DNA of 64,000 bases from an uncultured delta proteobacterium (GCA_963737265.1 CAVTRY010000007.1:320001-384000); one strand, 5' to 3'; numbered from the stretch's first letter, positions 14,033 to 20,106 are shown. Program-made: numbers and translations. Notes: a model not told the origin generated them from the sequence alone.

Positions 14033-15205
14033 TTACCCCTTCGGGATCAGGCGCGCCATGATCACGCCTTCGATCTTGCGGATCTTGTCGATCACGGCTT
14101 CTGTGACGGCACCATCGACGTCGATGATGTTGTACGCCAGCTCGCCTGCGCTCTTGTTCATCATGTCGATGATGTTGATTTTATCGGCGGCCAGCACGGT
14201 GGTGATTTGGCCGACCATGTTGGGCACGTTGGCGTTGCCGACGACGATGCGCGGGCGTCCCATGTACTGCATCTCGCTGTTGGGAAAATTCACCGAGTTC
14301 TTCACGTTGCCGAACTGGAGGAAGTCGCGCAGCTGGCGGGCAGCCATGACGGCACAGTTGTCCTCGGCCTCGGGCGTGGACGCGCCAAGATGGGGGACAG
14401 AAATGACGTTCTTCTCATCGAGCAGGTCGTCCTCGGGAAAATCCGTGACGTAGCTGGCGACCGTGCCCACGGCCAGGGCCTCCTTCAGATCCGCGGTCTT
14501 GACCAGACCGCCGCGCGCCAGGTTCACGATGCGCACGCCCTTCTTCATGACGGCGAACTGGCTGCGGCCGAGCATGCCCCTGGTGGCATCCAGCAGCGGC
14601 ACATGCAGCGTGATGTAATCGGACTGGGAAAGCAGCATGTCCAGGCTGGTCGCGCGCCGAACCGTGCGCGCCAGGCCCCACGCCGCCTCGACCGAAATGT
14701 ACGGATCGAAGCCGATCACGTCCATGCCGAGCGCAACGGCGTCGTTGGCCACCATGACACCGATGGCGCCGAGGCCGATGATGCCCAGTTTCTTGCCCTT
14801 GATCTCCGGACCCACGAAGTCCTTCTTGCCCTTCTCGACCAGCGGCCCGACCTCTTTGCCCTTGCCCTTGAGCGAACGCGTCCATTCGACGCCGGCGACA
14901 ATGCGCCGCGAGGAGAGCAGCAATCCGGCGAGGACCAGCTCTTTCACGCCGTTGGCGTTGGCGCCCGGCGTATTGAACACCACGATGCCGCGCTTCGAAC
15001 ATTTGTCGACCGGGATGTTGTTCACGCCAGCGCCGGCGCGGGCGATGCCCTTGAGCGAGGCCGGAAGGTCCAAGAACTGCATATCCGCGCTGCGCACGAG
15101 AACGCCGTCGGGGTTCAGGATCTCGGACGCGATTTCATAGCAATCGCGCGGTAGCTCGTCGAGTCCGATGGAAGCAATCTTGTTGAGTGTCTGGATCTTG
15201 AACAT
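14033..15205 (-). CDS. serA: D-3-phosphoglycerate dehydrogenase (short form with ACT domain)
   Basis: RAGAGVNNIP, NTPGANAN, GLGAIG, PHLGASTPEAE. Confidence 0.88.
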   Translation of the reverse strand: MFKIQTLNKIASIGLDELPRDCYEIASEILNPDGVLVRSADMQFLDLPASLKGIARAGAGVNNIPVDKCSKRGIVVFNTPGANANGVKELVLAGLLLSSRRIVAGVEWTRSLKGKGKEVGPLVEKGKKDFVGPEIKGKKLGIIGLGAIGVMVANDAVALGMDVIGFDPYISVEAAWGLARTVRRATSLDMLLSQSDYITLHVPLLDATRGMLGRSQFAVMKKGVRIVNLARGGLVKTADLKEALAVGTVASYVTDFPEDDLLDEKNVISVPHLGASTPEAEDNCAVMAARQLRDFLQFGNVKNSVNFPNSEMQYMGRPRIVVGNANVPNMVGQITTVLAADKINIIDMMNKSAGELAYNIIDVDGAVTEAVIDKIRKIEGVIMARLIPKG

Positions 15206-15378
15206 GGTTTCTGCCTCGCGGTGATAGTGATGGTCCGTTCCCCCAGCTTCGGCCGGGTATCCTGGCCGATCACGCGCACGCCGTCTACCAGGTATGATGG
15301 ATGGTAGTGGGTCAGTTTGAAGTCAACGCGCACGGTCGTTTCGTAGACACGGGCCGCGACTTGTGGCAACCCTAGAGC

Positions 15379-15618
15379 ATGCAAAAGCGCGCACGCATGC
15401 CCAAAGACTTCAACCAACTGGCCAAGATGGTCGGCGACATCGCCACGGGTCAGGCCCCGGCCGAGCCAGACGCTAACGCTGGCAAGAATCCCGCAGCGGT
15501 GGCACTGGGGAAGCTCGGAGGCGTGAAGGGTGGCAAAGCGCGGGCCGCCAACATGACCAAGAAGCAGCGATCGGAAGCCGCTAAGAAGGCAGCCAAGGCG
15601 CGGTGGGGAAAGGGTTAG
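15379..15618 (+). CDS. Small basic Lys/Ala-rich protein (histone-H1-like), transposon passenger
   Basis: KNPAAVALGKLGGVKGGKARAANMTKKQRSEAAKKAAKARW. Confidence 0.8.
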   Translation: MQKRARMPKDFNQLAKMVGDIATGQAPAEPDANAGKNPAAVALGKLGGVKGGKARAANMTKKQRSEAAKKAAKARWGKG

Positions 15619-16589
15619 TCTTCAAACGGGAAACTTGTCTGGCGTCCGAATACCCTCGCCACGTGACGCTCGTATTCCTCGCGAGTCGCCGAGGCGTCCG
15701 CAAGACCAAGTAGACGCCCAAGATGGGTGCGCAGCGCCTTTACCCCTATTTCAGATAGGAACTGATGCAGTCTCTTGTGCGTTTCGCCTCCCCTGGCACG
15801 ACGTGTGAGTTCAAGTATCTTTCCGTGGCTGTGGGCCAAGGGCTCGTACACTTGCGCCACTGTTAGGTGCTTGAACTTCCACGGCCTGTTCTTCTCGGGC
15901 TTGGGAAGCTGGTAAAGCCGATACCACTGCTCGTACAACTCCGGCGGAAATTCCTTCTCGTAGTCGCGGGCTTCTTCGCGGACGTAGAACTTGAAAGCCG
16001 CGATCGTCTCTTCTCGCGTAGCGTCGTAACCGGCAAGCGCATAGACCAGACCCTTGATGCCGGCCTTGGCAGAGGCGCCAAGAATCACGTGGGCTTGTCT
16101 GGCTACATTTTGGTGTGCCTTCTTCAGTTTGCCGTCTGCTTCGGCCTGGATGATGGCCTTACAAATATCGACGAGGATCGTGACGTCGTATCCGTTCACC
16201 GTAACGGGAGGCACCGCCGCGACCAGCGATGACCACTGGAAAACAAGGGGGTTTCTGATCTTTTCGACGAGTTCGCGACCGAGGTAAGGCGCCATCGTCG
16301 CAGTGCTGACGAAGGCAGGTAACCTGCCCCCGCTTCCTCCAGACAGACCCAACGCTGGCGCCATCCCGCGCTGGCTGATGACTGCCGTCTTTGGATCGTC
16401 ATCAAGCACGTAGCACTCGACGTCGATGCCGAACTCTTCCTTGAAATTTCCCTTATGGGTTGCGCGCGGCGTTTTCCCTCCCCACCTGGCAGCTGCGCCT
16501 TTCTTTGCAATGGCCCGCCTCTCTTCTGGCGACAGAATTTCGGCTCGCGCAATTCCTCCCAATGCTCTTCCCTTCGGTTCTTTGTCCAT
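15615..16589 (-). CDS. P63C domain protein
   Basis: N-terminal GGIARA...AARW; VECYVLDD; EEARDYEKEFPPELYEQWYRLY; RLHQFL. Confidence 0.82.
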   Translation of the reverse strand: MDKEPKGRALGGIARAEILSPEERRAIAKKGAAARWGGKTPRATHKGNFKEEFGIDVECYVLDDDPKTAVISQRGMAPALGLSGGSGGRLPAFVSTATMAPYLGRELVEKIRNPLVFQWSSLVAAVPPVTVNGYDVTILVDICKAIIQAEADGKLKKAHQNVARQAHVILGASAKAGIKGLVYALAGYDATREETIAAFKFYVREEARDYEKEFPPELYEQWYRLYQLPKPEKNRPWKFKHLTVAQVYEPLAHSHGKILELTRRARGGETHKRLHQFLSEIGVKALRTHLGRLLGLADASATREEYERHVARVFGRQTSFPFED

Positions 16590-16697
16590 GCTTGCTTACC
16601 TTTCTTTGCTTGCATTCTAAGCACCGACAAGCAGAATGCAAGCATGAGTGAAGAAAAATGCTTGCATATACCTAACCGTTCAGGCATACTGTTCAGT
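16588..16697. promoter_or_regulatory. Divergent promoter region with repeated TGCTTGC motifs; putative leaderless transposase promoter
   Basis: TTGCAT-N17-CATACT-N7-ATG(16698); 12-bp inverted repeat TGCTTGCATTCT (16607-16618) / AGAATGCAAGCA (16633-16644). Confidence 0.55.
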
Positions 16698-17516
16698 ATG
16701 AATCGGTTGCCACAAAACAAGCAGATCGCGGTGGTGAAGGCCCTCGTCGAGGGTTGCAGCATTCGCGCGACGGTGCGCATGACCGGCGTCGCGAAGAACA
16801 CCGTGATCAAGCTTCTTTTGGATCTCGGCGCGGCCTGTGAGGCGTACCAAGTCGAGCACTTGGTCAACCTCCCGTGCAAGCGCATTCAGTGCGACGAGAT
16901 TTGGAGTTTTGTGGGCGCGAAGGCGAAGCAGGTTGCCATGGGCGCGCACGGCGTGGGCGACGTCTGGACCTGGACCGCCATCGACGCAGAAACCAAGCTG
17001 GTCCCCTCGTGGCTTGTCGGCGACCGTGGCGCGGACACCGCCCGCCGCTTCATCTCGGATCTCGCTGGCCGTCTCTCAAGCCGTGTGCAACTCACGACCG
17101 ACGGCCACAAGGTCTACCTGGACGCCATCGAGCGCGCGTTCGGCGACGACATCGACTACGCGATGCTGGTCAAGCAGTACGGCGAGTGCCGCGAGGGCGG
17201 CGAAGTCCGCTACAGCCCGGCCGTCTGCACCGGAGCGAAGAAGGAAGCGATCACGGGGAACCCGGACGCCGCACACATTTCTACCAGCTACGTCGAGCGC
17301 CAGAATCTCACCATGCGCATGAGCATGCGGCGGTTCACCCGCCTGACGAACGCTTTCTCGAAGAAGGTCGAGAACCACGCCGCTGCCGTCGCGCTCTACT
17401 TCATGCACTACAATTTCTGCCGCATCCATCAGTCGTTGCGGGTGACGCCTGCGATGGCGGCGGGCGTGACGGATCACGTTTGGGAAATCGCGGAGATCGT
17501 CGACCTCTTGGGCTAG
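16698..17516 (+). CDS. IS1-family DDE transposase (single ORF)
   Basis: HTH SIRATVRMTGVAKNTV; IQCDEIWSFV; LTTDG; STSYVERQNLTMRMSMRRFTRLTNAFSKK. Confidence 0.93.
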   Translation: MNRLPQNKQIAVVKALVEGCSIRATVRMTGVAKNTVIKLLLDLGAACEAYQVEHLVNLPCKRIQCDEIWSFVGAKAKQVAMGAHGVGDVWTWTAIDAETKLVPSWLVGDRGADTARRFISDLAGRLSSRVQLTTDGHKVYLDAIERAFGDDIDYAMLVKQYGECREGGEVRYSPAVCTGAKKEAITGNPDAAHISTSYVERQNLTMRMSMRRFTRLTNAFSKKVENHAAAVALYFMHYNFCRIHQSLRVTPAMAAGVTDHVWEIAEIVDLLG

Positions 17517-17590
17517 CCGGAGGATTCGGGAGCAACTTCCGCGACGTCCAGGCCGATAGGTCGTTAGAAGTTGCAAGACACGAGGATTTC

Positions 17591-19283
17591 ATGGGAACGT
17601 ACCTCAACGTGAACACGCTCTACTACGGCGACAACCTCGACGTGTTACGGCGGTATGTCCCCGACGAGTCGGTCCATCTCGTCTATCTGGATCCCCCCTT
17701 CCAGAGTGGACGTGATTACAACGTACTTTTCGAGGAACAGGATGGGACGAAGGCCAAGGCGCAGATTCAGGCATTCGAAGACACCTGGGAGTGGGATACG
17801 GGAGCTGCGGCGACCTTCGATGAAGCAGTTGGTGCTGGGGGGAAGGTAGGCGAGGCTTTGCTCGCATTCCGCCAACTCTTAGGCGGTAGCCCGATGCTGG
17901 CCTATCTGTCGATGATGGCCCCACGTCTCGTCGAACTGCGCCGAGTCCTAAAACCGACGGGCTCTCTCTACCTGCACTGCGATCCGAGCGCTAGCCACTA
18001 CATCAAATTGCTTCTTGATGCGGTTTTCGGCCCGGAACGCTTCATCAGCGAAATCGTATGGCAGCGCGCGATGTCGAAGGGGCTCTCGACGCGACGGCTT
18101 CCATCGAATCACGATGTCATCTTCCACTACAGCAAAGATGAGAACTGGATATGGAACGTCGACACCAACCTTCCGGCCGTATGACCCTGATGATCTCGAC
18201 GAGAAAACGGCAGGAAAATACTGCCACAAAGATCCAGACGGCAGAGTCTACCGTCTCAGCGACGTGACGAACCCCAATCCCGACCGCCCAAATCTGACAT
18301 ACGAGTTTCTTGGGATGACGAAAGTCTGGCGATGGACGAAGGATCGCATGCAGGCCGCATTCAATGCCGGCCTGGTCATCCAGACCAAACCGAGCACGAT
18401 ACCCCAGCTCAAGCGTTATCTCGACGAGCAGCGAGGACGCCCACTCGATGATGTCTGGACGGATATTCCTCCGCTCAATTCACAGGCAAAAGAACGGTTA
18501 GGGTATCCGACGCAGAAGCCGGTGGCTCTCTTGGAAAGAATCATCAGGGTTTCATCGAATGAAGGCGACGTTGTGCTTGATCCATTCTGTGGCTGTGGGA
18601 CCACGATTGAGGCTGCGGCGACGATGAAGAGGGAATGGATCGGGATCGACGTCACGCATCTTGCCGTGAGCCTAATCAAGCACCGCCTCTTGGGCAGTCT
18701 TGGAGCGAAGCCAGGCGTCGACTACAAGGTGATCGGGGAGCCGACCGACTTGGAGGGCGCGAAGCAACTCGCACTGGAGGACCGCCATCAATTCGAGCAT
18801 TGGGCCTTGGGCCTGGTAGGAGCGCGAGCTTCCGCACACGGGAAGGGTGCCGACAAAGGAATCGATGGCCTGCTCTTGTTCCAAGAAGGCGGGATCGGCA
18901 CTCCACACCTACGGGTTCCCATCTCGGTGAAGTCGGGGCATATCCATTCCAACATGGTGAGCGAGTTGCGTGGCGTGGTTGAGCGCGAGAAGGCCGCCCT
19001 GGGGGTTCTCATCACCCTTGAAGAACCAAGCGGGCCAATGAAGCGTGAGGCGGCCTCGGCGGGCTTCTACGAGTCCTCATGGGGCAAGCATCCGAAGTTG
19101 CAGATCCTCACCATAGAAGAACTTCTTGGCGGCAAAGGGATCGACATGCCGCCGATTCGCGCGGGCGGGACGACGTTCAAACAGGCGCCACGCGCGGAAG
19201 CCCAAGTCGAGCCAGAGTTGACGCTTCCTGGGATCGACGCGTCGACCACGCGGCCGGGCGGTCAGAAGCGGCGTCGGAAGTAG
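17591..19283 (+). CDS. N6/N4 DNA methyltransferase (beta class) fused to a C-terminal Mrr-like nuclease-fold domain; apparent frameshift near 18170
   Basis: LYYGDNL, YLDPPF, GYPTQKP, VLDPFCGCGTT; C-terminal GADKGIDG...ISVKSG. Confidence 0.88.
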
Positions 19284-19350
19284 AAACGGCGTCGTCAAGC
19301 TGCGTTAGGCGTTTTCGGATTCAAACTGACCCACTACCTGATGGATCGCA

Positions 19351-20106
19351 ATGCTGTCAATGATCGCTCTGCTGCTAGCCACTCCGGCGCTGGCCGAGGC
19401 CGGGGCGCGGGAAGCGCCGGCCGTGCTGTTTCCGTCAGAGCCGCTGGTTGCGGTTGCCGACGACCGGGAGGCGCATTTCGTGCCCGTGCTGCGCGAGCGA
19501 AGCAAGAAGGAGACCTGGTTGGCGGAAAAGGCGTGGCGGCCGGACGTGCACGTGCGCGACGCCGACCTTGCGCGAACGCACCGCCCCGGCGAACAGGCTC
19601 CCCGGCGAACGGGTCCGCCAAACGTCCAAGCCGAAGCGCGATTGGCAGGGGCCATGGCCCCCATCGGCACGGGAATCCAGCCCGTCACGACCCTGTTCAA
19701 CATCTGGAACCGCGAGGCGATGCCCCTCATCGCGGGCCAGCCCTACAAACGGCGCTTTCAAGTCTTCCTGCGCGACCACTACACCGCCGAGTCCACCCAA
19801 GCCGACACCCGACTCGCCATCATTCTGGCCGCGGCAGCGATTAGGTTCCACGCCCCGAGAGTCGAGATCGTTTCAGGATACCGCTCGCCCAAATACAACC
19901 TGATGTTGCGCAAGAAGGGACACCAGGTGGCGCGCGAAAGTCAGCACACGCAGGGCAACGCGGTCGATTTCCGCGTCCACGGCGTCGAGACCGAGGTCCT
20001 GCGGGAATTCGTGCGCGGGCTCCGCATGGGCGGCGTGGGCTTCTATCCGCGCACGCACTTTGTCCACGCGGATACCGGCAAGATCCGCTACTGGCAGGGA
20101 TCCTGA
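19351..20106 (+). CDS. YcbK/DUF882 peptidase M15-like protein
   Basis: Signal peptide; IVSGYRSP, SQHTQGNAVD, GGVGFYP, FVHADTG. Confidence 0.85.
   Translation: MLSMIALLLATPALAEAGAREAPAVLFPSEPLVAVADDREAHFVPVLRERSKKETWLAEKAWRPDVHVRDADLARTHRPGEQAPRRTGPPNVQAEARLAGAMAPIGTGIQPVTTLFNIWNREAMPLIAGQPYKRRFQVFLRDHYTAESTQADTRLAIILAAAAIRFHAPRVEIVSGYRSPKYNLMLRKKGHQVARESQHTQGNAVDFRVHGVETEVLREFVRGLRMGGVGFYPRTHFVHADTGKIRYWQGS

Follow-up and report, generated by a model that had tools for sequence, protein, structure and literature searches.

A probable passenger-carrying insertion sequence of the IS1 family in an uncultured delta proteobacterium, and its relatives

The stretch of DNA analysed here, 64,000 nucleotides from an uncultured delta proteobacterium (GCA_963737265.1 CAVTRY010000007.1:320001-384000; hereafter the window), carries a mobile element of 4036 bp at positions 15303-19338, measured from one terminal inverted repeat (TIR) to the other as read from the sequence. 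The element is very probably a transporter insertion sequence (tIS) that belongs to the IS1 family and was inserted recently. It combines the features that define a tIS, namely IS-type ends, a target site duplication (TSD), a single transposase, and passenger genes that are unrelated to transposition and vary between copies. Its transposase reading frame and both of its ends are intact, which suggests that it is autonomous, and the copy in the window is probably still mobile. Insertion sequences are usually regarded as free of cargo, and tIS blur the boundary between insertion sequences and transposons.

Ends, insertion site and transposase

The element is bounded by perfect 19-bp TIRs that begin with GGT and is flanked by an exact 8-bp TSD, as an earlier note made from the sequence alone had claimed. 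More specifically, the left inverted repeat (IRL), GGTAGTGGGTCAGTTTGAA, matches the reverse complement of the right inverted repeat (IRR) at 19 of 19 positions, and TGATGGAT abuts both ends of the element (Table 1). A search of the 64-kb window for this 19-mer at up to 3 mismatches returns two sites only, the IRL and the IRR, and 100 shuffles of the sequence yield 0 matches. The G+C content is 0.54-0.64 within the element versus 0.60-0.70 over much of the flanks, and the junction between the IRR and its flank (19138-19350) is bridged with 0 differences by a contig from a public soil metagenome (run X1).

The empty-site allele that the earlier note proposed looking for was found in related genomes. 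The region was used to query 40 relatives, 12 of them genomes of the same genus, and in all 12 of the latter the two flanking genes share a contig and are separated by about 80-420 bp that contain nothing matching the element. In an alignment with four same-genus genomes, the flanks of the window overlap on TGATGGAT and the relatives contain TGATGG once at the junction. The genome to which the window belongs (6.55 Mb, 25 contigs) holds the full element in one copy, plus two solo TIRs with 0 and 1 mismatches, respectively: one at G000:C10:31855-31873, with the final 23 codons of a related transposase about 180 nt away, and one at G000:C1:44845-44863. Congeners contain only transposase fragments with one TIR (L017-L019). 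Because the ends and the TSD are perfect, the full copy is single, the site is empty in congeners, the G+C content differs from that of the flanks and the junction is bridged, these observations together argue for a recent insertion into this lineage, in agreement with the earlier note. The solo TIRs of this genome (L187, L188) appear to be relics of earlier invasions, as do the remnants in the congeners.

The predicted transposase is a distant, single-ORF (open reading frame) member of the IS1 family, and the family assignment made in the earlier note is upheld by profile matches and by the names that its relatives carry. The Pfam model PF03400 (DDE_Tnp_IS1) matches the protein at 48.9 bits, above the cut-off of 24.1, and an hhalign comparison with InsB of Escherichia coli K-12 IS1A gives a probability of 94% (E 1.4e-7) with 35% identity over 117 columns. 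This alignment pairs DEIWSF with DEQWGY, TTDGHKVY with MTDGWPLY, and YVERQNLTMR...FSKKVENH with RIERHNLNLR...FSKSVELH, and, relative to InsB, the transposase contains about 40 additional residues that separate the second D from the E. The candidate catalytic residues D66, D135 and E200 are invariant in an alignment of 48 relatives. An N-terminal helix-turn-helix (HTH) region aligns weakly to InsA residues 55-88. The tips of the TIRs are alike in the element (GGTAGTG) and in IS1A (GGTGATG); the former fits the IS1 TIR consensus GGnnnTG, and a duplication of 8 bp fits the 8-9 bp that IS1 elements generate. Relatives of the transposase are named 'IS1 family transposase' in JGI and NCBI records. 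A tblastn search of plasmids did not find canonical E. coli IS1 at E <= 1e-5, and profile methods were needed to detect the homology. ISfinder appears to accept single-ORF subgroups within IS1.

Table 1. Features of the element and of its immediate flanks, in window coordinates.
Feature	Position	Strand	Evidence or remark
2-hydroxyacid (serA-type) dehydrogenase gene, left flank	14033-15205	-	
Left TSD copy, TGATGGAT, 8 bp	15295..15302	.	Sequence read directly
IRL, GGTAGTGGGTCAGTTTGAA, 19 bp	15303..15321	+	Related elements in many phyla end in this 19-mer (0-5 mismatches)
Small basic protein, 79 amino acids	15379..15618	+	Conserved core gene at insA-like position
P63C-domain protein, 324 amino acids, left-slot cargo	15615..16589	-	PF10546, 44.9 bits
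Perfect 12-nt inverted repeat, TGCTTGCATTCT / AGAATGCAAGCA, candidate operator	16607..16644	.	In the divergent intergenic region between P63C and transposase genes
Putative transposase promoter, ending with GTTCAGT at the ATG	16662..16697	+	Sequence read
Single-ORF IS1-family DDE transposase, 272 amino acids, N-terminal HTH and catalytic core	16698..17516	+	PF03400, NF033558, hhalign
N6/N4 DNA methyltransferase, N part, with DPPF, ends at stop	17591..18184	+	PF01555 positions 1-114
Remainder of methyltransferase (FCGCGTT motif) and Mrr-like/'inactive restriction endonuclease' domain	18165..19283	+	PF01555 positions 118-219, PF22722, PF04471
IRR, exact reverse complement of IRL, 19/19	19320..19338	-	Sequence comparison
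Right TSD copy, TGATGGAT	19339..19346	.	4 nt 5' of the DUF882/Peptidase_M15 ATG (19351)
DUF882/Peptidase_M15 gene, right flank	19351-20106	+	

The element family and its passenger genes

The distribution of related elements among prokaryotes is wide. Scans were made of genome_contigs, which holds one genome per prokaryotic species, and of metagenome_contigs, and the best 80 loci of each were kept (160 loci). The former contains at least 599 pattern matches, of which at least 566 were confirmed as encoding relatives, and the latter at least 601, of which at least 595 were confirmed. The kept loci fall in Acidobacteriota, Verrucomicrobiota, Planctomycetota, Myxococcota, Nitrospirota, Chloroflexota, Pseudomonadota and other phyla. 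In a protein database search all 8000 scored candidates lie at E <= 1e-20, giving at least 8000 relatives, and in an even sample of the window's own phylum a homologue at E <= 1e-30 is present in 16 of 301 genomes (the genome of the window included), with 1-4 copies each. Plasmids of cultured strains contribute 21 records, including those of Mesorhizobium loti, Acidiphilium multivorum, Hoeflea and Methylocapsa. The 321-kb jumbo phage vB_BpoS-Gurke of Brevundimonas (ON529850.1) also encodes, at 174794-175666, a transposase homologue with 35% identity that is full-length and lacks an annotation.

Ends were assigned to these loci by taking, on each side of the transposase, the nearest match to the window 19-mer at up to 5 mismatches that starts with GGTAGTG. 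Both TIRs are found in 101 of the 160 loci, many of the remainder being short contigs, and an exact 8-bp TSD flanks 86 of the 99 testable pairs. The family TIR consensus is identical to the TIR of the window, positions 1-7 being conserved by construction, and the target duplications show a weak palindromic A/T bias at positions 2-3 and 6-7. Lengths from TIR to TIR range from 1336 to 5874 bp (1.3-5.9 kb), with a median of 2818 bp. Of the 101 elements, 99 have more than 600 bp between the IRL and the transposase, and 53 have more than 300 bp after the transposase. The family layout is thus IRL, small basic gene, [cargo], transposase, [cargo], IRR, and the two cargo slots proposed in the earlier note are borne out. 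Its suggestion to search the TIR across genomes and to tabulate core against variable genes was likewise followed, and the 101 TIR-to-TIR relatives share a core while their cargo varies. The cargo pair of the window (P63C with methylase/Mrr) is present in none of the 160 other loci. The closest of the genome_contigs matches kept (L020, 86% identity) has a 5'-truncated transposase and other DNA downstream.

The core includes the gene for the small basic protein, which the earlier note had counted among the cargo, a view that did not hold. Of 66 loci with a left TIR, 55 have a homologue that begins about 65-80 nt inside the IRL and keeps the same orientation (one of 56 regular-expression matches was spurious and was excluded), and the strict C-terminal motif GG.ARA..LS...R..IA.KAA..RW occurs at that place in 75 of the 101 complete elements. 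Because the shortest element (L067, 1336 bp) holds only the small gene and the transposase gene, these two and the TIRs are taken to form the core. The small-protein family was aligned from 53 sequences. The small protein contains no Cys, and its AlphaFold2 model consists of four helices with a predicted local distance difference test score (pLDDT) of 79.9. Profile searches of Pfam, NCBIfam, PADLOC and PDB gave no match to it, a Foldseek search of PDB gave nothing significant (best E 6.5), and its relatives in the ESM Atlas belong to clusters named 'hypothetical' and 'histone H1' only. A predicted complex of the transposase with the small protein scored 0.01, which is uninformative either way. 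To judge from its place and conservation, the small protein most likely binds nucleic acid and assists or regulates transposition, an assignment held with moderate to low confidence.

The four genes of the element lie in the order given by the earlier note: small basic protein (+), P63C (-), transposase (+) and methyltransferase-nuclease (+). The order stands, but the last of these is spread over two frames and is not established as a nuclease. Its N part matches the MTase_II and MTase_III models of PADLOC, and the homology of its C part lies in the next frame, that of an ORF at 18015-19283; the methyltransferase ORF is not intact, being split between positions 114 and 118 of PF01555 by a frameshift at about 18150-18184. 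The designation 'nuclease' is doubtful because PF22722, 'inactive restriction endonuclease' (30.0 bits), slightly outscores PF04471, Mrr_cat (27.5 bits), in the C-terminal domain. The Mrr-like segment reads ISVKSG where the Mrr carried by a related element (G025) reads FQCK, at what we take to be the catalytic positions. Three public sequencing runs, all soil metagenomes from a single study and none of RNA, yielded contigs that agree with parts of the element at every base and leave 18057-18191, which includes the frameshift site, uncovered. A similar methylase/Mrr cargo is found in one other of the 160 loci (L021, 6852-8376), where it is also frameshifted, at a different place; the break in L021 falls within the FCGCGTT motif region, pointing either to repeated decay of this cargo or to assembly errors.

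The left-slot passenger of the window, the P63C protein, gave no match in PADLOC and is no known defence gene. Proteins with this domain occupy the same slot and strand in 7 of the 160 other loci, with identities of 28-34%. The N-terminus of the P63C protein bears the C-terminal basic motif of the small protein (hhalign probability 95.4%, E 1.8e-8), and because this motif also heads P63C cargo proteins, it may represent a portable nucleic-acid-binding module.

To annotate the cargo of the relatives, 236 candidate ORFs drawn from 61 elements were compared with Pfam at E <= 1e-4. The left slot most often holds an HTH (Xre) protein of about 370-400 amino acids, in many cases with a Peptidase_M78 (ImmA/IrrE-like) domain. 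HTH_3 is combined with Peptidase_M78 in L021, L042, L080 and L081, and HTH-only proteins of similar size occur in L030, L032, L051 and L066. This cargo is followed by a partner of about 160-230 amino acids of no known family, an arrangement that resembles a two-gene addiction or defence module, and it is also present on the plasmids CP050295.1 and NZ_CP011481.1. SDH-type ClpP-like proteases are carried by L057, L059, L064, L095 and L096, and also by G020. In the right slot, on the minus strand, proteasome-like proteins with weak matches to Pfam 'Proteasome subunit' are found in L039, L044, L054 and L073; they comprise about 265-345 amino acids and are convergent with, and overlap, the end of the transposase gene. 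ORFs of the same size and position without a match in L026, L034, L036, L048 and L071 are probably the same cargo.

Other passengers are parts of toxin-antitoxin systems (ParE, HicB, PIN, MazF, HigB, Gp49 with HTH, MqsA with SecB, and SocA/Panacea), a RelA/SpoT-domain protein beside a Bro-N protein (L084), an AAA_21/AAA_15 ATPase (L028), a D12 methylase with NotI (L053) or by itself (L072), an MmeI-like enzyme of 831 amino acids (L047), GmrSD (L088), P63C (L061, L079) and nested insertion sequences (L078, L082). The G025 copy carries Mrr, and the copy on an Acidiphilium plasmid carries a RES toxin with an Xre antitoxin in its right slot. The idea in the earlier note that the element spreads defence and modification genes is therefore supported at the level of the family; it is weakened for the window itself, where the methylase is frameshifted and P63C is no known defence gene.

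Several further observations concern the dynamics of the family and of its insertion sites. In three loci (L082 4932-4941, L095 4400-4409 and L034 5321-5330) the IRL of the complete element is preceded, at a distance of exactly 8 bp, by another TIR end of the right type; in L082 and L095 the intervening 8 bp are identical to the target duplication of the element itself. The 5 kb upstream of these three double ends contain no further transposase, and the double ends suggest insertion beside an older solo end, with ends serving as preferred targets, or else a head-to-tail remnant. A miniature derivative, a TIR-to-TIR unit of 228 bp, abuts a full element in L027 (2650-2877), and a soil-metagenome contig (run X3; depth about 30) joins an IRL to an IRR with 14 nt between them. 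In the genome of the window the insertion severs the DUF882 peptidase gene from its native upstream region, placing 4 kb between the two and leaving 12 native nt before the ATG. Because the insertion lies 4 nt upstream of this ATG, transcription of the peptidase gene would come from inside the element or be absent. The frameshifted methylase gene points in the same direction as, and toward, the peptidase gene.

Regulation, proposed mechanism and alternative readings

The region before the transposase gene contains a putative promoter with a -35 element TTGCAT (16662-16667), a 17-nt spacer and a -10 element CATACT (16685-16690), followed by GTTCAGT (16691-16697), which abuts the ATG. Together with the first codons this heptamer forms GTTCAGTATGAA, which matches the inner TIR, GGTCAGTTTGAA, at 10 of 12 positions. 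TGCTTGC(A) is present in four copies between 16590 and 16667, the inverted repeat of Table 1 included, and TGCTTGC repeats occupy the corresponding position in the P63C-bearing relatives L061 and L117. Across the family, 35 of 46 scorable loci have a -35/-10 pair of sigma-70 type whose end lies about 7-12 nt upstream of the transposase ATG, often inside a GCTTGA...TCAAGC palindrome. GGTCAGT at up to 2 mismatches directly precedes the ATG in 14 of the 46 loci, versus 1% at control offsets. The TIR-like site may be an autoregulatory site bound by the transposase, a role assigned with moderate to low confidence.

In the proposed mechanism, the transposase would use its N-terminal HTH to recognise the inner portion of the 19-bp TIRs, cut at the GGTAGTG tips and integrate with 8-bp staggered cuts. 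Because cargo separates the IRL from the transposase gene, the latter would need a promoter of its own, and the putative sigma-70-type promoter would drive its expression; as this promoter ends about 7 nt before the ATG, the messenger RNA would have little or no leader. Palindromic repeats and the TIR-like half-site overlap the promoter, and the transposase or the small basic protein probably exerts autoregulation there. The small protein, encoded at the position of insA, may act as an accessory or regulator of transposition. P63C and the methylase/Mrr-like fusion would be passengers, the latter presumably inactivated by the frameshift in the window copy. By carrying toxin-antitoxin, restriction-modification, type IV restriction and further modules of a selfish or defence type in the two slots, elements of the family would be more likely to be retained once transferred.

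The window copy might instead be a dead or dying relic that arrived by transposition but is now immobile, its genes decaying. This is improbable: the methylase/Mrr gene is frameshifted, the genome holds one full copy beside two solo-end remnants and the congeners retain only transposase fragments with one TIR (L017-L019), all of which would suit a relic, but the TIRs are identical at 19 of 19 positions, the TSD and the small ORF are intact, and the full-length transposase keeps all 73 columns that are invariant in the 48 relatives (the window protein being the first row of that alignment). The frameshift itself may be an assembly or sequencing error, or may be overcome by programmed recoding, with the fusion protein made intact. 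Such an explanation draws on the draft state of the genome (25 contigs), on the public contigs that leave 18057-18191 uncovered, and on L021, the only other example, a metagenome assembly whose cargo is also split and could likewise be in error. It is nevertheless unlikely, as the site has no long homopolymer, and breaks at different positions in two independent elements fit selection against the cargo, or relaxed selection on it.

Membership of the IS1595 family rather than IS1 is highly improbable. The tIS of the IS1595 family typically have passenger genes and an 8-bp TSD, but no IS1595 model of Pfam or NCBIfam matches at E <= 0.01 (PF12762 and PF12760 are presumably the accessions of the IS1595-type DDE domain and zinc ribbon), whereas IS1 models do, the profile of IS1A InsB is matched at 94% probability, and an N-terminal zinc ribbon is absent. 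It is doubtful, too, that the small basic protein is a passenger that became fixed beside the IRL, for example a nucleoid protein resembling histone H1 or H-NS that eases expression or silencing in new hosts. Relatives of the protein are automatically named 'histone H1', its basic motif heads P63C cargo proteins in the manner of a portable module, and no sequence feature ties it to transposition. Against this, the gene keeps a fixed distance and orientation from the IRL in 55 of 66 loci while the DNA up to the transposase varies, and it is retained in the minimal element of 1336 bp.

Some observations count against the interpretation of the element as a mobile IS1-family tIS with a regulated transposase and defence-type cargo. 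NF033558, the curated NCBIfam equivalog for IS1, scores 71.6 bits on the transposase, under its cut-off of 100, and is matched over model positions 43-169 of 199. The transposase is one continuous ORF of 272 amino acids without the insA/insB' frameshift fusion, and the zinc-finger part of InsA has no counterpart in it. Because the equivalog cut-off is missed and both the fusion and the zinc finger are absent, the element is assigned to an outlying IS1 subgroup. An exact TSD is absent from 13 of the 99 TIR pairs, some of which are nested or mis-paired ends (L036, L078), and divergent ends were missed because the TIR calls required GGTAGTG. Most cargo ORFs have no Pfam match, and 'defence-type' thus applies to the annotated minority. 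The roles of the promoter and operator and of the small protein are read from position and conservation; no homologue with a known function could be detected for the small protein, and the TIR-like heptamer stands before the ATG in a minority of loci (14 of the 46 scorable). Finally, the combination of a broken methylase passenger and a single full copy means that the window copy could be decaying.

Significance and comparison with known systems

The element does not embody a new principle: a single copy is ordinary mobile DNA, and it is the picture at the family level that is useful. In the literature, no paper among those listed joins 'IS1 family' with cargo, defence and toxin-antitoxin, and neither the 19-mer TIR nor its reverse complement occurs in any paper searched, its 13-mer prefix being present in one unrelated paper. 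ISfinder appears to include an IS1 subgroup, ISMhu11, that reaches 4.6 kb, a name that is in no paper searched. A distinct IS1 subgroup with its own accessory gene and regulatory layout is apparently undescribed in the literature, and a name for it may exist in ISfinder. It is possible, and is put forward tentatively, that this is an undescribed cross-phylum IS1 subgroup that has become specialised as a small vehicle for addiction and defence modules. Such a subgroup would be marked by a new small basic protein in place of InsA as the accessory or regulator near the IRL, a near-leaderless internal promoter under a TIR-like operator, and two slots whose contents turn over much more rapidly than the core evolves. 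In that case, the 1.3-kb core would provide a minimal, tractable model for the passage from an insertion sequence to a cargo-carrying transposon, and the unannotated cargo ORFs an unexploited guide to new toxin-antitoxin and defence genes. Because most of the cargo ORFs have no Pfam match, the family is a source of defence candidates through 'guilt by association'. It may also serve as a simple experimental system for the joint evolution of cargo capture and transposase regulation, and it would act as a vehicle for the horizontal spread of defence and addiction genes among soil and water bacteria.

The element shares with IS1 a homologous DDE core, a small gene just inside the IRL that is followed by the catalytic ORF, and similar TIR tips. 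It differs from IS1 in having a single-ORF transposase without the InsA zinc finger and with an insertion of about 40 amino acids between the second D and the E, a small IRL-proximal protein unrelated to InsA, and an internal transposase promoter. The size given for canonical IS1 in the earlier note, about 0.8 kb, agrees with the 768 bp annotated for IS1A of E. coli K-12; IS1 (0.77 kb) has no passengers, whereas elements of the present family measure 1.3-5.9 kb and carry passenger genes.

The tIS are a class defined by ISfinder/TnCentral in the IS66 and IS1595 families, the only two for which the TnCentral preprint lists them; IS1 is not among the tIS-bearing families there. Like the IS1595 and IS66 tIS described there, the element has TIRs, a TSD, one transposase and passengers unrelated to transposition; unlike them, it has a transposase of another family, places its cargo in two defined slots and possesses a small accessory gene that is conserved. 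Passengers of similar kinds are known from larger transposons, with toxin-antitoxin genes in the Tn3 family (PMC9330008) and defence systems as cargo of Tn7-like transposons (PMC8649781). The Tn3 and Tn7-like transposons are large multi-gene systems (TnpA/TnpR and TnsABCD, respectively), whereas the element described here is the size of an insertion sequence and relies on one transposase, usually with one or two small modules as its cargo.

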